From assembly GCA_030697705.1 (NCBI GenBank), contig JAUYPE010000002.1, positions 4,312 through 68,311 on the forward strand: DNA of 64,000 bases, written 5' to 3'. This DNA comes from a bacterium (GTDB lineage Bacteria; Patescibacteriota; Minisyncoccia; Sungbacterales; HO2-52-23). A program made the position numbers and the translations under genes. Shown here piece after piece: positions 15,541 to 58,339 of this stretch; the stretch's first letter is position 1; every line of letters starts with the position of its first letter. The notes below the pieces were generated by a model. The model saw nothing but the letters and a program-made list of their open reading frames with translations, ran no database searches and was not told the origin of the DNA.

Positions 15541-15630
15541 GTCATTCCGATCCGCCCTAGGCGGAGAGGAATCCCGCTAACATTCAGAATGCTGAAATCG
15601 TACGGGATTCCTCACTCTGTTCGGAATGAC
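15541..15630. repeat. MITE-like palindromic repeat, copy A (TIR gtcattccga...tcggaatgac)
   Basis: Perfect 10-bp terminal inverted repeats. Internal motif ctgaaatcgtacgggattcc shared with copies at 21928, 26232 and 45824. Lies just downstream of the 1206-aa surface protein gene. Confidence 0.7.
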
Positions 15631-21815: not shown

Positions 21816-21927
21816 AATGCAAACAAGAATGAAATTTTTTTAACCTCAAGCGACAACAGCATATAAGACATCAGTCCTTTCGTCAACTAAAGATAAAGGA
21901 CATTGGTATGCTTTATGCGCATTATCT

Positions 21928-22010
21928 GTCATCCTGAACGAAGTGAAGGATCCCGTACGATTTCAGTATACTGATATAGTAGCGGGATTCCTCGTTTCAC
22001 TCGGAATGAC
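21928..22010. repeat. MITE-like palindromic repeat, copy B
   Basis: gtcatcctgaacgaagtgaagg...cgtttcactcggaatgac with internal ggatcccgtacgatttcag; in the divergent intergenic region between 21054-21815 and nth. Confidence 0.7.
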
Positions 22011-29009: not shown

Positions 29010-30085
29010 CATTTCCATCCCGAGGCGTTTTTTAATCTCTGCCACAAGTTCAGGGGAATAACGCTCATACACCCGGTTTCTTGTATTCCGCTGTTGCTCA
29101 AACCATTGAGGATGTACTCTTTATGTATTGCTCGACTATTCTTTTCACCGCAACATCACCAAGTTTACACACTTGTTTTAACTCGTTAAGCCCAAGCCAT
29201 TCAGACCGGACATCAGGAATTGATTTCATTTGAGAGATCCTTTGCTTAATTTCTTGGACTAATTCCGGAGCATAATGTTCAGCCTTTTGGTGTGACTTCT
29301 TAACCTGACGCTTCCCCAGCCATTCGGGATGTTCTGCGCGATATTCTTCAGCAATTTTTCTAATATACTTTGAATAACGAAATGCACCTCTCTGTACACT
29401 TCAAACAAGCCGCAGGCGGTGCGGTTATGACGAGAACATACTCAAAACAAGGAAACTCGAACTGGAACGAACTGAGGAGACCAATGGATCATACGGCGAT
29501 GATTACACGACAAGATACGCTGAAATTGCAGACAGGTAGTGGGTAAGATAGCCGTCAATGGATCGGGGGAACGAGGTGACCAGTCCATAGCAGAGCTTGA
29601 GAATGCGGAAGTGGATCTCAACCCGCATGCGCAGATTGAGTAGCACGATATGGATAGGGGTTGAGAGAATCCACGAATTTCTGATACGAGAGAGGGGGCT
29701 CCATGATCTCCCAGAGTGATTTCTTAGTGGCAATATTTTGCTTCTGCTTCAGGATTGCGCAGGTTACGGCTTCGCTGTTGGTAAGGGCTGATTTCCGACC
29801 TTTGGGATGTTCCCGATCTTTGAGTTTCAATGAATGGAATAGTTGTGATACTCTTGCTTTGAGGGTGTAATAGATTGTAAGGAAGGTGTTCATACAAGTG
29901 GCGGCGTAAGCCGTCCCTTGTATTGTAGCAGAAAAGGTGATGTGGTGCATTTCGTTATTCAAAGTATGGTAGTCATCATACAGCTCGTGGCGTTGGATCG
30001 GGGTTAATCGGGTGCGTTTGTGGATGGTCATGTTGTTTACCGTACCGCCGATAGCCATTCCGGCAATGGCGGAGACTGTAAACAA
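29010..30085 (-). mobile_element. degenerate transposase pseudogene, possibly IS630/Tc1-like, frameshifted
   Basis: 155-aa ORF (29618-30085) with HTH-like RLTPIQRHELYDDY and HPKGRKSALTNSEAV (cf. IS630 N-terminal GRP motif). Downstream frames are broken but translate to ...EHYAPELVQEIKQRIS... and ...RYSPELVAEIKKRLG... (cf. the YSPDLNPIE tail of IS630/Tc1). GC is visibly lower than in flanking genes. Confidence 0.3.
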
Positions 30086-33132: not shown

Positions 33133-33242
33133 GTCATCCCGAACGGAGTGACTGCCAGCAGGCGTCCCGTGAGGGAGGGATCCCTCACAGCTTCAGTATA
33201 AACTGAATGTTAACGGGATTCCTCGCTCACGCTCGGAATGAC
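33133..33242. repeat. MITE-like palindromic repeat, copy D
   Basis: gtcatcccgaacggagtgactgccagcaggcgtcccgtgagggagg...ctcgctcacgctcggaatgac. Its first ~45 nt are near-identical to the reverse complement of copy E (45824-45929). Abuts the SOD ribosome-binding site. Confidence 0.75.
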
Positions 33243-33524: not shown

Positions 33525-33731
33525 TTAGCGAACAGATTTTAATACCCCTTCTTTGCGAGTATGCTTTTTTGAGAAACGCTTGCTTGCGTCAAGTATCTCA
33601 ACATACAAGGGAATCCCCTTGCTATCAAGATCAACCATAATGCCGGGAGCGATTTCGCGCGTTTCAGCCACCTTGCCCCTCTTAAAGGTCAGGTTTACGG
33701 CATCAGCAACAGGATCATAAGAATAGTTCAT
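33525..33731 (-). CDS. DUF2283-family protein (putative antitoxin partner)
   Basis: 68 aa MNYSYDPVADAVNLTF...GIMVDLDSKGIPLYVEILDAS, pattern of DUF2283; overlaps the upstream gene by 4 nt. Confidence 0.55.
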   Translation of the reverse strand: MNYSYDPVADAVNLTFKRGKVAETREIAPGIMVDLDSKGIPLYVEILDASKRFSKKHTRKEGVLKSVR

Positions 33732-33970
33732 GGAAGTGAGTTTGTAAAGTATTGGGTAATAACAACGATTCTATCATCTTCTCGCACAAAAATGACTTTG
33801 AGATATTTTTTACCAACCTTGTAAAACGCAAGAAACTTGTCTGATTCCATGATGAGCTTCTCCGGTGCGTCTATCGCACTATACACCATTTCCCGGGAGA
33901 TACTTCGTTGCCCTAATTTTTCTAATGCGTGCCGCGTAAAAATAATTTTCACCATGGAACGGAAAACCAA
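33728..33970 (-). CDS. DUF4258-family protein (putative toxin partner)
   Basis: 80 aa, IIFTRHALEKLGQRSISREMVYSAI...; DUF4258/DUF2283 are a known co-occurring pair. Confidence 0.5.
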   Translation of the reverse strand: MVFRSMVKIIFTRHALEKLGQRSISREMVYSAIDAPEKLIMESDKFLAFYKVGKKYLKVIFVREDDRIVVITQYFTNSLP

Positions 33971-33972
33971 TG

Positions 33973-35097
33973 CTACCCATAATACTTCTCCTTGTAGAAT
34001 CTGATCAACTGTTCAACTTCCGTGATAATTTCGGGCGAGCCGACGCCGACTTTGAGTTTTTTCTGCACCGTCTCCAGATCAACCGCGCCCTCAAGCACCG
34101 CCTCTTCTATGTCTTTGTCGGTAATGTTGAGTTTGACATCAATCACCTTCGCTCCCTCTATCATAACCCGTTCGTTCTGATTTGTCCTGCGAAAATAATC
34201 ATTCGCCGCTTTGCGAAACGCCTTGTCCGCCAAAACAGAACAGTGAATTTTTCTATTTGGTAAACCACCCAACCGATCCATAATGTGCTGGGGTTTTATT
34301 TTTAATGCTTCGCCCAAAGGCAGGCCGCCGTTTTCCGTTACCATAACCGAAAACATAGATGTCGCCGCAATCGCCGAACCGCAGCCAAAAGTTCTCCATT
34401 TCATCTCCGCGACTTTTTCGGTTTGCGGTTCAATTTTTAGCCACATCTTCATCATATCGCCGCAATTATGGACAAGAAACGCACTCGTCGCGTAGGTATG
34501 AGAGTCTGCAACTTCAAAATTATACAGTCGTCCACCTTCAAACGACATAGTCTCTACATGCTCAATCGGTAGCTCAATGTGGTGACGCTCCCCCACAACC
34601 GGATAAAGGCAAATATCTTTCGCCTTAAGATCTCCGGCATGCGCCCATGTAATAGGCGCATATGCGTTCGATTCAGACATATATTGCTTTGCATAGATGA
34701 GATGGTCGGGTGTCGCAATAATTTCCCCTTGGAAATTCTTGATTTTTATGAGTGAACCCGCTTGATACCTCACACGAAACGCCTTCTCAACAGGATAGTA
34801 TCCAGAATCATGACTCAATACTTTTTCACCAACTTGAATGTTGGGAATCTCTTTCAGACCAGCCCCCGTCAACACTAATGTTTCAGGCGCAAGGCAGGCG
34901 GGCGAGCCGACCATCCCCGTCGCGTCATAAGCATTTTCATCCGGCTCCTCAAGCATGAGATTGCGCGGATTGAAAAAATGCTCTTTGACGATATCCGAAT
35001 AGTACCACCGCTCGCCGGTGAATTGGTTGACCACATCCCCCGCCGCGAGCCCCCCCTCGGGAATCGGTTTCTTTTCTTTAACTTTTTGATTATCCAT
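33973..35097 (-). CDS. IscU/NifU-type Fe-S scaffold protein interrupted by a mini-intein
   Basis: N-extein ...YSDIVKEHFFNPRN...GMVGSPA | intein | CGDMMKMWLKIEP...FGCGSAIAATSMF...LPNRKIHCSVLADKAF (IscU signature with all three Cys); C-terminal BFD/NifU-like tail without Cys. Confidence 0.8.
   Translation of the reverse strand: MDNQKVKEKKPIPEGGLAAGDVVNQFTGERWYYSDIVKEHFFNPRNLMLEEPDENAYDATGMVGSPACLAPETLVLTGAGLKEIPNIQVGEKVLSHDSGYYPVEKAFRVRYQAGSLIKIKNFQGEIIATPDHLIYAKQYMSESNAYAPITWAHAGDLKAKDICLYPVVGERHHIELPIEHVETMSFEGGRLYNFEVADSHTYATSAFLVHNCGDMMKMWLKIEPQTEKVAEMKWRTFGCGSAIAATSMFSVMVTENGGLPLGEALKIKPQHIMDRLGGLPNRKIHCSVLADKAFRKAANDYFRRTNQNERVMIEGAKVIDVKLNITDKDIEEAVLEGAVDLETVQKKLKVGVGSPEIITEVEQLIRFYKEKYYG
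34465..34896 (-). other. mini-intein (144 aa, no homing-endonuclease domain) inserted at the GSPA^CGD active-site Cys of IscU
   Basis: Block A CLAPETLVLT, block B GEIIATPDHLIY (TxxH), block F/G YNFEVADSHTYATSAFLVHN followed by +1 Cys (CGDMM). Confidence 0.8.
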
Positions 35098-35120
35098 AGT
35101 GAGGCGTTGTTTAGCGTTAT

Positions 35121-35790
35121 TCTGTCATTCCCGACTTAATCGAGAATCTATGATTCCTATCTTGCGTCGTAAACGATATTAGAACCATATTCCATCTGCA
35201 AATTGGATCATTTTGCCCATGAGGACACCGCAAAAATTACCCAAAATGGGGGTAAAAGTGTGAAGATACCTATAACTACAGAGGGCAAGAGGTATAAAAG
35301 GTTAAGGAGTAGCTTGAGCTTTTTTCCGGTTAGATCACCAATCCTAATTTTTGCCCCATCTTTATAGTGCTTCAAGTTTTCTTTGAACTCATTATCAATG
35401 GACTCCGATAGATAAATGTACAAAGCAAGAAAAACTATAGCAGGAATCATCACAAGGGTAGCATAGGGAGCGACTCTTAAAAGAATGGGGTGTGGATAAT
35501 TGAATGTTTTGTATAACTCATTAAGCGTCGGATAAAGATAAAGATGAACATACAAAAGGAGCAAGCTATCCGCAATTGCAATAAAAAGTGCTACATTTTT
35601 TATACGCTTTAGCACCGTCCACGCCTTCTCTTTTTCTATAGTACGATTCCTACGCTTCATAGCTATTAATACGGATAGGATAGGGACCAGAATTAACAGG
35701 CCATATATATAGGAAGTACTCATAGTTTTTATTTACGATAACTTTATAAAATCCTCTGCTTCTGGATTCCCGCTTTCGCGGGAATGACAG
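35121..35790. mobile_element. segment bounded by a perfect 12-bp inverted repeat (ctgtcattcccg / cgggaatgacag) carrying a low-GC passenger gene
   Basis: IR arms at 35122-35133 and 35779-35790 share the gtcattcc TIR core of the MITE family. The enclosed membrane-protein gene is much more AT-rich than flanking nifS/iscU. Confidence 0.5.
35208..35723 (-). CDS. hypothetical 4-TM membrane protein (passenger within IR-bounded segment)
   Basis: ORF with 4 hydrophobic segments; AT-rich codon usage. Confidence 0.45.
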   Translation of the reverse strand: MSTSYIYGLLILVPILSVLIAMKRRNRTIEKEKAWTVLKRIKNVALFIAIADSLLLLYVHLYLYPTLNELYKTFNYPHPILLRVAPYATLVMIPAIVFLALYIYLSESIDNEFKENLKHYKDGAKIRIGDLTGKKLKLLLNLLYLLPSVVIGIFTLLPPFWVIFAVSSWAK

Positions 35791-35800
35791 GATTAAGATT

Positions 35801-37075
35801 TCACTTATAATTCTTCCCGCCTACTTTTATTTTAGACCCTTGACCGGCAAACGCCTCCGGGTGGGACACATCCATCTGCCCCATTTCCAGCCGTACGGGA
35901 GAGATTTGGCGCAGTTTTTCTACAATACCAGGAAAAACTTCCATGACATAATCCAAATCCTCCTTCGTCGTACGGTGGCCGAGCGTAAAGCGGAGCGATC
36001 CGTGCGCGTACTCATACGGTCGTCCAATGGCGAGAATGACATGCGAAGGGTCGAGCGTCGTAGAGGTACACGCCGAACCGGTGGAGATGTAAATGCCCTT
36101 TGAATCCAGATACAAAATAACCGCCTCGCCTTCAATATCCAAAACCGACATATTCACATTATTAGGCAGACGCTTTATCGGATGACCGTTCAAGACAACT
36201 TTTGGAATCTCGGTTATGAGTCGGTGCGTTAAGTAATCGCGAAGTTCAATCAAACGCGCGTTTTCTTTTTCTTTCTCCGCATGCGCGAGTTCAAACGCTT
36301 TGGCAAAACCGATAATACCCGGCACATTTTCCGTCCCAGAACGGAGATTATTTTCCTGCCCGCCGCCGTGGATAATGGCCTTGAGCCGTGTCCCGCGCTT
36401 TACATAAAGACACCCGACACCTTTGGGACCGTACATTTTTGAGCCATTTATCGCGAGCAGATCAACGCCTAATTTTTCAACATCCATCTCAAGCGCGCCC
36501 GCCGCTTGGCACGCGTCGGTATGGAAATAAATCGGCGTCGCGTTTCCGGCAATTTTACGCTCCGCGCGGATATCTTTTATAACTTTGGCAATCTCCGGAA
36601 TCGGTTCAATGGTACCGATCTCGTTATTGGCATACATGATAGAAACAAGAATCGTATCCGGTTCTATCGCGCGGCACACCGCTTCCGGATCAACGAGTCC
36701 GTCCTCATCAACCGGCAGGTAGGTAGTGCGAAACCCTTCTTTTTGCAGTGCTTCACATGAGTGCAAAACGGCGTGATGCTCAATCGCGGAGGTGATAATA
36801 TGCCTCCCCTTATCTCCGTACATGTGGGCTATACCAAAAATTGCCAAATTAATCGCCTCCGTTCCTCCGCCGGTAAAAATCAACTCCTCCGACTTGCAAT
36901 GCAAAATGTGAGCGACCGTTTCGCGCGCCGCGTCTAGTGCCTCTTTTGCGCGCCTCCCCGGACGGTACAAAGACGAAGGATTGCCGAATTCACCTTCCCA
37001 AAACGGCTCCATCGCCGCTTTTACGCGCGAGTCAAGGTAGGTCGTCGCCGCATGATCTAAATACACTTCTCGCAT
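35801..37075 (-). CDS. cysteine desulfurase (NifS/IscS, class V aminotransferase)
   Basis: YLDHAATT, PLP-lysine region (INGSKMYGPKG), catalytic loop SGSACTS. Confidence 0.85.
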   Translation of the reverse strand: MREVYLDHAATTYLDSRVKAAMEPFWEGEFGNPSSLYRPGRRAKEALDAARETVAHILHCKSEELIFTGGGTEAINLAIFGIAHMYGDKGRHIITSAIEHHAVLHSCEALQKEGFRTTYLPVDEDGLVDPEAVCRAIEPDTILVSIMYANNEIGTIEPIPEIAKVIKDIRAERKIAGNATPIYFHTDACQAAGALEMDVEKLGVDLLAINGSKMYGPKGVGCLYVKRGTRLKAIIHGGGQENNLRSGTENVPGIIGFAKAFELAHAEKEKENARLIELRDYLTHRLITEIPKVVLNGHPIKRLPNNVNMSVLDIEGEAVILYLDSKGIYISTGSACTSTTLDPSHVILAIGRPYEYAHGSLRFTLGHRTTKEDLDYVMEVFPGIVEKLRQISPVRLEMGQMDVSHPEAFAGQGSKIKVGGKNYK

Positions 37076-37247: not shown

Positions 37248-38444
37248 ATGCCGCTCAATCCTTTCAGGTTCTCTGAAAAAGCTCGCACCTATTATGGCAG
37301 AGTATTCCCACGCATTGAGCTTGTTGCGGCCCATATAGATGAAGAGTATAGCATTTCAGCCGCTGCGAGAGAGGAGATTATGCGTGATCTTGCCAAACTC
37401 CCCAAAAAAATCGCTGCATCCGCCTCAACTCTGGGAAATGATGCCGCTCAACTCCGCGCCGCTTATGCGCACCTTAATGGGAGGGATAGAGAAAAATGGG
37501 AAGAGATGATGGCACACGATCATGCCATTACGCGCCCTCTGAAAAGATTATTGAAAGACGGCATCACGACATGGGAGCAGGTGAAAGAACGGGCGACTGC
37601 GCAACAACGCCTGAATGAACAAGAACCGCCGCTTGATGATTCAACAGCACGTGAGACGGAACAAGAAACACCACCGGAGCCGGTACAATATGATGATCCT
37701 CGCCCAGCGTCACCAATGGATGAGCGATCATCAACTACCCACCCCTTCCTTTTCCTTAAAGCATTAGCGTCGGCAAGCGCAACAGTGCTGGGAGAATTGG
37801 GGCGGGTAGCCGAAGAGGTGACCTATCTTCTTGATGCCCGAGCTCGCGACCAGCGCCTTCTGGTACGCCAGAGCGAGCTTGAGACACGAAACGCACAACT
37901 CACAGAGCAGATCGCTCTCCTAGAGGAGACAAGGCGAACAACACAGAAGCGGCTTGCCGGTGCAGAGCACCGCATCCAGATACTCACCCAACAAGTAAAG
38001 GAGCTCGCGCCACGGCGTTTGGAAGAACTTGCGGAACTTTTTCCAAGTATCCCGGCACTGTTCAAATGCGCCGACGACATCCGTGAGGAGATGCGAAAGC
38101 GTGAGGATATAGTCAACTCGTTGCCCACAAAGCTCCTTTGGCTCGGAAACCATGACGGCAAACCGAAAGAGATGGTGTCCATGGTCTATCATCCCCCTTT
38201 TAAAGCGTATTTCAGCGACGCGGATCACGAGATTAGAGAGGCGGTCATAAAACAAATTCACTTCCTGTGCGAAGAGGGACCGCATCACAAGTCCCTTGAT
38301 ACCAAACGGAACAAAAATCCAACTCCTCCCCACACGCCGGATGAGCATATGTATATCCGGATAAAAATCGGCCTGCGGGCCACCTGCTCAAAGGAAGGAT
38401 CAGAACTTCACTTTTACAATATCATTCCGCGAGGTGATCTATGA
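37248..38444 (+). CDS. hypothetical coiled-coil protein with possible RelE/ParE-like C-terminal domain
   Basis: 398 aa on the plus strand, a rare orientation here. Acidic linker, heptad-like central region (LLVRQSELETRNAQLTEQIALLEETRR). C-terminus ...HMYIRIKIGLRATCSKEGSELHFYNIIPRGDL is reminiscent of a RelE-fold tail. Confidence 0.35.
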   Translation: MPLNPFRFSEKARTYYGRVFPRIELVAAHIDEEYSISAAAREEIMRDLAKLPKKIAASASTLGNDAAQLRAAYAHLNGRDREKWEEMMAHDHAITRPLKRLLKDGITTWEQVKERATAQQRLNEQEPPLDDSTARETEQETPPEPVQYDDPRPASPMDERSSTTHPFLFLKALASASATVLGELGRVAEEVTYLLDARARDQRLLVRQSELETRNAQLTEQIALLEETRRTTQKRLAGAEHRIQILTQQVKELAPRRLEELAELFPSIPALFKCADDIREEMRKREDIVNSLPTKLLWLGNHDGKPKEMVSMVYHPPFKAYFSDADHEIREAVIKQIHFLCEEGPHHKSLDTKRNKNPTPPHTPDEHMYIRIKIGLRATCSKEGSELHFYNIIPRGDL

Positions 38445-39108: not shown

Positions 39109-39181
39109 ATTTTTTTATCCCGTGAAAACGGCTACCATCCACCTCCCTATCCTACGGGAAGGGGATATTTTTTACAAGCGT

Positions 39182-39805
39182 TTATCTGTAGGAACGCGAT
39201 CGCCGCCGCCGGCGCCACCCCCGGACAAGCGGAAGCGCTCCGGGGAGCAGGGAGAGCGCGATAATACCGAGAACGATAGGCAGAAGATACCGGTCAATAT
39301 CGGGAATGACACTCCCTAAAAAATAGCCCACTACGGTCAATCCGGCGCCCCAAATGATTCCGCCGAGTATATTATAAAAAAGAAATGTGCCATAGGGCAT
39401 CTTGCCCACTCCTGCAATAATCGGCGCGAATGTACGGACTACCGGTATAAAGCGCCCGAATATAATCGCCCGCGGACCGTGCGTATCGTAGAATACTCCC
39501 GCCTTTTGCACATATTCGGGACGAAAAAAACGTGAACGCGGGCGCGTGAAAAGCCGCGCTCCAGCCCGCCGCCCGAACGCATAGCCGACATTATCACCCA
39601 GAATCGCCGCGACCGTGGCAAGCGTGGCAAGTGGAATGATTGCAAAAAATCCTTGAGCCGCGAGAAATCCGGCCGTAAAGAGCAAAGAGTCGCCCGGTAG
39701 CGCTACACCGATAAGCAGACCGGACTCGGCAAAAATCATGGCGAAAACACCAAGATATCCTCCCGCGGTGACAAGCGCCTCGACACTGATACCGAAGATA
39801 TTCAT
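39182..39805 (-). CDS. DedA/SNARE-associated family membrane protein
   Basis: FAESGLLIGVALPGDSLLFTAGFLAAQG DedA signature. Confidence 0.75.
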   Translation of the reverse strand: MNIFGISVEALVTAGGYLGVFAMIFAESGLLIGVALPGDSLLFTAGFLAAQGFFAIIPLATLATVAAILGDNVGYAFGRRAGARLFTRPRSRFFRPEYVQKAGVFYDTHGPRAIIFGRFIPVVRTFAPIIAGVGKMPYGTFLFYNILGGIIWGAGLTVVGYFLGSVIPDIDRYLLPIVLGIIALSLLPGALPLVRGWRRRRRSRSYR

Positions 39806-45810: not shown

Positions 45811-45823
45811 AGATTATTATTCT

Positions 45824-45929
45824 GTCATCCCGAGCAGAGCGAGGGATCCCGTACGATTTCAATATACTAGTATTGACGGGATTCCTCCCTCACAGGACGC
45901 CTGCTGGCAGTCACTTCGTTCGGAATGAC
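45824..45929. repeat. MITE-like palindromic repeat, copy E, in the ftsE-ftsX intergenic region
   Basis: gtcatcccgagcagagcgagggatcccgtacgatttcaatatac...cgttcggaatgac. Reverse complement matches copy D over ~45 nt. Fills most of the 147-bp ftsE/ftsX spacer. Confidence 0.75.
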
Positions 45930-58180: not shown

Positions 58181-58339
58181 AGACCTACTGCGTAATAATT
58201 TTCGTCATGAGATTTTCAAATTGTAGGCGAGGCGAAGGAAAAATTATGAAGCATATACAGCGTATATGTTGAATAATTTTTACCAAGCCGTAGCCAGAAT
58301 TTGGAAATCGGAATAGGAAGGTTATTACGCAGTAGGTCT
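58181..58339. repeat. perfect 18-bp inverted repeat (agacctactgcgtaataa / ttattacgcagtaggtct) with 123-bp spacer
   Basis: Arms at 58181-58198 and 58322-58339; lies between the P-type ATPase stop and the next gene's start (left arm 17 nt from the ATG). Confidence 0.7.

Follow-up and report, generated by a model that had tools for sequence, protein, structure and literature searches.

A low-GC membrane-protein gene bounded by outward-facing NTS/SRM-type hairpins at the nifS-nifU junction of a Sungbacteria-like bacterium

How a low-GC membrane-protein gene came to stand between nifS and nifU, framed by a perfect inverted repeat, is the question raised by a 64-kb stretch of contig JAUYPE010000002.1 (hereafter the window, meaning the whole stretch that was analysed). 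The left 12-base arm, ctgtcattcccg (= CTGTCATTCCCG), occupies positions 35122-35133, and the right arm, cgggaatgacag at 35779-35790, is its exact reverse complement; with a repeat finder the match grew to 15 nt, complementary at 93% (35119-35133 and 35779-35793). The arms bound a segment of 669 bp (35122-35790, no strand assigned; GC content 0.38), made up of a hairpin module at each end (A on the right, B on the left) and 611 bp of low-GC DNA that holds an open reading frame (ORF) of 171 amino acids (aa). An earlier note, written from the letters of the window alone, had placed the perfect 12-bp repeat exactly where we find it, and had read the segment as a miniature inverted-repeat transposable element (MITE) with a captured passenger gene, or as two solo terminal inverted repeats (TIRs) marking an old insertion. 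The kinship with repeats and the foreign gene survive from that reading; the arms, however, are not ordinary transposon ends or plain transposase TIRs, and capture and mobility are unproven. Instead, the inverted repeat is what two copies of a hairpin of the NTS/SRM type (introduced below), set in opposite orientations, have in common in their 5′ portion (C-TGTCATTCCCG). Since these copies enclose foreign low-GC DNA in a variable slot, we consider it probable that the segment represents a gene cassette which arrived by horizontal transfer and is bounded by a pair of SRM hairpins.

Taken by itself, a perfect 12-bp inverted repeat with a spacer of 100-1000 bp is not rare: the window holds 10, against 3.3 ± 2.0 per shuffled window. 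The arm pair stands above chance because its arms can be assigned to a known repeat family, and not because of the 12-bp match. That the match arose by chance around an ordinary resident gene is in line with the roughly 3.3 such repeats expected per window and is nevertheless hardly credible, given that the arms are recognizable members of that family and that the enclosed gene is compositionally deviant and missing in relatives; weak as the 12-bp statistic alone may be, a chance inverted repeat was rejected on motif identity. The GTCATTCC core of the arms is itself commoner than chance in the window, with 11 matches where 2.07 are expected and none of 100 shuffles reaching 11. It is shared with the MITE-like elements of the window, as the earlier note had remarked; arms and elements are kin within one world of GTCATTCC-ended repeats.

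The repeat family was reached by a literature search with 11-mers (8-mers gave nothing useful), which led to a paper on the Ssn/NTS system (Chenal et al., Nat Commun 2025, PMC11893778), a system described only in 2025, for Neisseria and further Pseudomonadati in the main. The sequence called NTS, for Neisseria Transformation Sequence, is CGTCATTCCCGCGMAVGCGGGAATCYRG; it extends the dRS3 repeat ATTCCC-N8-GGGAAT, gives it an orientation, and is searched for with at most one mismatch; a degenerate Ssn-related motif (SRM) follows the pattern HGTCWY N0-2 YYVSBRH N0-5 WNVSBRG N0-2 RNCYNB (PMC11893778). SsnA, a GIY-YIG nuclease of single-stranded DNA (ssDNA), recognizes the hairpin by its forward strand in single-stranded form and cleaves a few nucleotides upstream; GTC 5′ of the palindrome is critical for cleavage and the C directly 3′ of it for binding (PMC11893778).

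Module A, on the right (35762-35789, minus strand; TGTCATTCCCGCGAAAGCGGGAATCCAG), is an intact member of this family that includes the right 12-bp arm. It begins 11 nt past the nifS stop codon, agrees with the NTS consensus in 27 of its 28 positions, fits the SRM pattern and contains a perfect dRS3 core, ATTCCCGCGAAAGCGGGAAT. Its ssDNA forms a hairpin with a stem of 8 bp and a GAAA loop (dG -10.2 kcal/mol, z -4.7), and none of 200 shuffles folded as well. Module B, on the left (35123-35150, plus strand; TGTCATTCCCGACTTAATCGAGAATCTA), includes the left 12-bp arm and is a less orthodox case. It has no NTS match even with three mismatches allowed, its ATTCCCGACTTAATCGAGAAT falls outside dRS3 ATTCCC-N8-GGGAAT, and its fold as ssDNA is weak, with a dG of -2.4 (z -0.5) for the forward strand and of -4.3 (z -2.0) for the opposite one. 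It does align with a stem variant, ...ATTCCCGA/TCGGGAAT... (CCCGA/TCGGG), that is intact in three loci of other genomes (L014, L027 and L108), and we therefore take it to be a decayed copy of this variant. The critical nucleotides are kept in both arms (GTC-ATTCC... and ...GAAT-C), whose GTCA tags point outwards. Sites fitting the SRM pattern number two in the window, where shuffles predict 0.28; the second (39283-39311, minus strand) lies inside a VTT-domain gene, forms no hairpin and is probably a chance match.

The nifS gene, the inserted gene and nifU share one strand, the right hairpin just past nifS is very stable, and relatives carry terminator-like hairpins directly after nifS. These facts invite an RNA-level role, in which the transcribed hairpins would serve as an mRNA stabilizer, a processing site or a terminator between the three genes. 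We think such a role distinctly unlikely, because neither hairpin is followed by a U-tract, the conservation of the stem sequence across phyla points to recognition of the sequence by a protein and not to structure alone, and SsnA does not bind RNA (PMC11893778). A terminator scan flagged neither hairpin, on which ground a terminator or promoter role was rejected, and an Rfam search of the window returned three tRNAs only, with no known RNA family at the hairpins.

The gene between the modules (35208-35723, minus strand) encodes a four-helix membrane protein of 171 aa, annotated at NCBI as a 150-aa hypothetical protein. It is the sole substantial ORF of the segment (the earlier statement that it was the only one needs qualifying, since the opposite strand has a trivial ORF of 54 aa); the four transmembrane segments predicted at the same time fit an AlphaFold2 model built from 24 sequences, with four long helices and a predicted local distance difference test (pLDDT) score of 91.5. 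The impression that the gene is more AT-rich than its neighbours held up on every measure. Its GC content of 0.378 falls in the lowest 0.9% of 516-bp windows (0.499 ± 0.047), GC at third codon positions is 0.386 against 0.527 ± 0.059, and its synonymous-codon log-likelihood is the third lowest among 54 putative genes. An exhaustive HMMER search recovered 25 representative relatives at E<=1e-3, the best at 54% identity, and a word-index protein search recovered the gene itself plus one homolog at 55%. Given these 25 homologs and the good AlphaFold2 model, we regard the ORF as a real gene.

The protein has no family match in Pfam, NCBIfam, PADLOC or PHROGs. The best PDB match of the family profile is PilC of M. 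xanthus, a weak one (E=0.0016) in two collinear stretches; none of 24 family members has a Pfam T2SSF match. Because a Foldseek comparison of the model with the PDB returned nothing and the genomic contexts of the homologs are not pilus operons, the likeness to PilC is a lead and no more.

The homologs of the gene, at 33-58% identity, sit on contigs of 36-41% GC in other contexts, where genes for an aldolase, a P-type ATPase and SmpB are among their neighbours. The closest in the protein searches is P0002; two further loci from a scan of Joint Genome Institute (JGI) metagenomes, L008 and L009, are slightly closer at 58% and carry no arms, and their nucleotide similarity to the insert (70%) is limited to the ORF. 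As these homologs lie on lower-GC contigs and similarity is confined to the ORF, we conclude that the gene was acquired horizontally from a lower-GC lineage of the candidate phyla radiation (CPR). No GTCATTCC arms accompany the homologs in four other places (five loci: L006, L007, L008/L009 and L130), and a genome scan with the ORF alignment found no other copies. The search for further inverted-repeat-bounded copies that the earlier note had suggested was likewise empty: neither 5.8 billion proteins and 1.84 billion representatives nor the collections of genomes, metagenomes, viruses and phages yielded a second such unit, and the whole unit is single in the window, with no near-identical further copies there.

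The conserved flanks of the segment were named correctly in the earlier note as nifS and iscU: upstream lies a nifS cysteine desulfurase gene (35801-37075, minus strand; TIGR03402, E=8e-151), and downstream a NifU/IscU scaffold gene with a 144-aa mini-intein (33973-35097, minus strand; Pfam NifU_N plus Hint/intein). The closest homologs of this NifS come from Candidatus Sungbacteria/Sungiibacteriota and other Patescibacteria, and the source organism is a Sungbacteria-like CPR bacterium. We recovered six related loci, which amount to five distinct versions of the slot between the two genes (L001 and L002 share the same NifS, as do L004 and L005). They keep the gene order VTT, (MFS), AhpC, nifS, nifU, ferredoxin and superoxide dismutase (SOD), and in none of them does the slot hold the 171-aa gene. 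In the complete Sungiibacteriota genome L003, nifS and nifU overlap. L001 and L002, whose NifS shares 92% aa and 84% nucleotide identity with that of the window, have a 176-bp spacer with a different MITE of 125 bp, ending in perfect 20-bp TIRs GGAATTCATGCGTTCCCGAC...GTCGGGAACGCATGAATTCC (6282-6408 in L001, equal to 4203-4329 in L002). The remaining versions contain ORFs on the opposite strand that have no Pfam match and a GC content near that of the host, encoding 129 aa in L004/L005, 109 aa in L131, and 156 and 68 aa in L132.

Nucleotide homology between the window and L001/L002 ends exactly at the nifS stop codon (35801) and restarts at 35075, inside nifU. Because the slot is filled differently in each version, and homology breaks at its borders, the junction of nifS and nifU, two genes that are normally coupled, is a hypervariable insertion slot, or hotspot, in Sungbacteria-like genomes, with five states in relatives and one in the window making six. 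The filling in the window is the most compositionally foreign of those seen.

So sharp a jump in composition at the arms would also be expected of a metagenome assembly chimera, in which a low-GC fragment of another CPR organism had been joined through shared repeats; the protein is recorded on one contig only, and 28-30 nt of module A are identical across different CPR genomes. We judge an artefact of this kind very unlikely. Only 12 nt of the right arm recur in the left, itself unique and decayed, and such a stretch is too short for an assembler to join. The gene, for its part, is complete, runs in the same direction as its neighbours and sits precisely between intact genes.

If the arms are hairpin modules, how do such modules behave elsewhere? 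We scanned for TGTCATTCCCGCGNNNGCGGGAATCC with one genome per species, and the figures on doublets and ssn units given here refer to the matches listed. The exact NTS-type motif occurs in at least 120 stretches from many phyla, with 13 CPR loci and one Nanoarchaeota metagenome-assembled genome (MAG) among the matches listed; the latter carries an exact NTS-type hairpin (L033, 1510-1535) in a contig binned as Nanoarchaeota. An Ssn-like GIY-YIG gene is present in 7 of 120 of these loci and directly abuts the repeat in five, and four loci (L019, L059, L086 and L090) hold SRM(+)-GIY-YIG-SRM(-) units of ~300 bp. With GIY-YIG genes beside the repeats in these loci, the published association of Ssn with its motif is independently reproduced. 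In the CPR locus L088, a weak GIY-YIG match lies 2.7 kb from the NTS. Adjacent SRM pairs are arranged '+ then -' in 50 of 86 cases, 41 of them no more than 150 bp apart. Compact doublets of this sort (55-140 bp, with a spacer of 5-90 bp) turn up in a wide range of phyla and have outward TGTCATTCC...GGAATGACA ends, which are exactly those of the arms in the window. A separate case is that of a Rickettsia endosymbiont (L070) with three dense doublets of 120-135 bp within 8 kb, possibly the same as the Rickettsia palindromic elements.

One of these doublets comes from a Sungiibacteriota MAG (L108, 51% GC), in which modules A and B stand back to back in 70 bp with the same outward TGTCA ends. Its A module is identical to positions 35760-35789 of the window at 30 of 30 nt; its B module, GTCATTCCCGACCTGATCGGGAATCC, lies 14 nt beyond A and is identical to the left arm at ~23 of 27. 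Compared in this way, the arms in the window are the two module types of an L108-like doublet, in the same polarity, parted by 611 bp of foreign DNA.

This geometry is compatible with three histories: (i) a doublet already bearing its cargo was inserted as a unit, (ii) foreign DNA was captured into a resident doublet, or (iii) two new spacers were later colonized independently. History (i) or (ii) gains support from the fact that the only two intergenic hairpin modules of NTS type in the window occupy the spacers flanking its most atypical gene and face outwards, for which a rough post-hoc estimate under independent placement is 2/53 x 1/4, or ~0.01. A possible internal 4-bp GATT repeat would fit insertion into a pre-existing doublet, at a length too short to count. 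Target-site duplications, which the earlier note had proposed looking for, are absent directly outside the arms (flanks ...gcgttatt and gattaaga... share no direct repeat); since 41 SRM doublets in other genomes have none either, their absence is uninformative.

In its strongest form, history (i) would make the segment a mobile unit, an SRM or MITE-like doublet with the ORF as cargo, transposed as one piece and mobilized in trans by whatever moves doublets. Its termini and polarity are those of compact doublets and of SRM-ssn-SRM units, both arms co-locate with a single strongly foreign gene, Ssn would be predicted to cut just outside both of them, and doublets too lack a target-site duplication, so that none need be expected here. 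We find this history doubtful all the same. The failure to find a second copy in the collections searched counts against it, and this, together with the armless homologs in different contexts, leaves movement as one unit unproven; the two arms are unlike in subtype and in degree of decay; and Ssn and NTS are not known to transpose, an analogy that PMC11893778 no more than raises.

The same differences between the arms, in stem subtype and in decay, favour history (iii), as does the absence of an orientation bias at gene-scale spacing among the pairs listed. On that account ordinary recombination would have brought the gene into the hypervariable slot, and the two new spacers would each have been settled afterwards by an SRM hairpin of their own. 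SRMs do occur in successive intergenic spacers around ordinary genes, in an SRM(+)-gene-SRM(-) arrangement that also counts in favour of a hairpin-bounded cassette; L079 has it around an HdrC-like gene, and the Falkowbacteria locus L100 around a glycosyltransferase/radical-SAM gene. The other fillings of the slot in relatives are without SRMs. Independent events are a possible, if unlikely, explanation: there are only two such modules in 64 kb, both of them flanking the same most atypical gene and pointing outwards (the ~0.01 given above), and their A+B pairing mirrors the Sungiibacteriota doublet of L108.

A cassette bounded by an SRM hairpin pair is the reading we prefer across these histories, and several observations weigh against it. 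A G->A change in the 3′ half of the stem takes the left arm out of the SRM pattern; this arm is decayed and may no longer function. At gene-scale distance, SRM pairs show no orientation preference once ssn units are removed, among the matches listed, and the outward orientation found here could therefore be a coincidence. Divergence of the ancestral spacer from L001 is too great for the insertion breakpoints to be set exactly at the arm ends. Any argument from genome-wide enrichment has to reckon with a 64-kb window that contains only one pair of NTS-type modules, one intact and one decayed. Finally, no GIY-YIG/Ssn gene was detected within the window by a motif regular expression or by tblastn with three GIY-YIG query sequences; the consensus used as a query does represent a real, very large family.

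How the arms of such a cassette might work can be sketched by analogy with the Neisseria biochemistry, in which the hairpins would act as Ssn sites in their ssDNA form. With outward GTCA tags, Ssn would be predicted to cut just outside each arm and on opposite strands, delimiting the cassette, a geometry that would be the same as in the insertion sequence (IS)-like SRM-ssn-SRM units. The arms may have mediated the arrival of the cassette, by insertion as a unit or by capture into a resident doublet, or they may now, as in Neisseria, modulate how it is exchanged through recombination or transformation. A bolder and rather improbable extension would cast SRM/NTS doublets as vehicles in addition to passive repeats or Ssn restriction tags, in which an outward pair of modules carries a cargo gene other than a nuclease and inserts without target-site duplication into a tight housekeeping operon, amounting to a hairpin-ended, Ssn-dependent gene cassette system in CPR bacteria. 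A literature search found no later paper on Ssn and mobility, and PMC11893778 does not discuss CPR bacteria.

Comparison with the Neisseria system itself shows how far the likeness goes. Beyond the 27 of 28 NTS positions, the dRS3 core, the fit to the SRM, the hairpin potential and the oriented GTCA tag of the right arm, both settings place the repeats in intergenic spacers beside a variable gene, and the 'NTS-gene-NTS' arrangement around a membrane-protein gene recalls what is discussed for Neisseria membrane-protein genes (PMC11893778). The host here is, in contrast, a CPR bacterium, its window holds no ssn gene, and one copy is intact while the other is decayed; moreover, what was demonstrated in Neisseria is restriction of transformation, not insertion or mobility (PMC11893778). 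The SRM-ssnA-SRM units and compact SRM doublets, noted in PMC11893778 as IS-like or MITE-like, agree with our segment in their TGTCATTCC...GGAATGACA termini, their lack of target-site duplication and, in L108, the A+B pairing. They differ in having a spacer of 5-90 bp or a GIY-YIG gene of ~95 aa where the present segment, a single copy, has a 611-bp interior with an unrelated membrane-protein gene.

Repetitive extragenic palindromes (REPs) and bacterial interspersed mosaic elements (BIMEs), with their IS200/IS605-like REP-associated tyrosine transposases (RAYTs), resemble SRMs in being short extragenic palindromes that act as ssDNA hairpins, in forming inverted doublets and in flanking a small domesticated nuclease gene with repeats. 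SRMs, unlike them, have no GTAG head, and their enzyme is of the GIY-YIG rather than the HUH Y1 type. Among the minimal mobile elements of Neisseria and the genes flanked by Neisseria intergenic mosaic elements (NIMEs), conserved flanking genes enclose cassettes that differ from strain to strain, with hairpin repeats at the cassette borders. The nifS-nifU slot has the same plan, with conserved flanks, varying cassettes and, here, hairpins at the borders; it departs from it in that its other fillings carry no SRMs, and exchange by transformation and homologous recombination is not known in CPR bacteria.

Classical MITEs and composite transposons share with the segment the TIRs around a short stretch (here 12 bp perfect, or 15 bp at 93%) and a kinship with a multi-copy family of short elements in the same genome. 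The segment is unlike them in its lack of a target-site duplication, a transposase or a second copy, in arms that are alike over only 12-15 bp and in the gene that it carries. Its sole substantial ORF, the membrane protein, has no Pfam, NCBIfam or PHROG transposase match. At 669 bp the segment exceeds the typical size of a MITE, and with a conserved 171-aa gene it is neither short nor non-coding.

The locus thus shows the NTS hairpin, with hardly a nucleotide changed, bordering a gene that appears to have been freshly acquired by a Sungbacteria-like CPR genome. CPR bacteria are thought to rely heavily on DNA uptake, and a system of hairpins and an ssDNA nuclease that marks variable gene cassettes would, if true, be relevant to the exchange of accessory genes among their small genomes. 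With its six states, the nifS-nifU slot provides a concrete test bed for the question whether cassettes are gained through SRM pairs.

The neighbourhood of the slot varies as well. The 144-aa mini-intein (GSPA/CLAPETLVL...FLVHN/CGDMM; 34465-34896, minus strand) interrupts nifU/iscU just before a cysteine of NifU_N that is probably cluster-binding. In L001/L002, a 610-aa NifU carries a larger, LAGLIDADG-containing insert at the same place, and NifU is intein-free at 221-226 aa in L003, L004, L131 and L132. Between nifU and the ferredoxin gene lies a DUF4258/DUF2283 pair that resembles a toxin-antitoxin module (33525-33970, minus strand), in a region not homologous to L001. On the other side, an orphan ORF of 398 aa (37248-38444, plus strand), of higher GC and probably coiled-coil, stands between AhpC and nifS with weak DruC and PHROG matches only; L001/L002 have only ~150 bp in its place. 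Between the VTT gene and AhpC (39109-39195), the window lacks the MFS transporter gene that all relatives possess.

Other palindromic repeats are scattered over the window. About five MITE-like elements of 90-130 bp lie at 15541-15630, 21927-22010, 26232-~26340, ~33140-33242 and 45823-45929, with further copies in L001 at 9045 and 10797. They have GTCATTCC / GG(A/G)ATGAC(AG) ends and an inner stem AGGAATCCCG...CGGGATCC; all are intergenic, and the SRM pattern does not fit them, though they have its GTCAT head and a doublet-like architecture. The element at 15541-15630 folds with a dG of -32.8 (z -9.7), and the copy at ~33140-33242 supplies a spurious N-terminal extension of the SOD ORF. Longer perfect inverted repeats also occur, of 24 bp (29365-29388 / 29944-29967) and 18 bp (58181-58198 / 58322-58339). 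The former bounds ~600 bp beside an HtrA-like protease gene, with a doubtful 155-aa ORF, and may be a decayed IS or another MITE.

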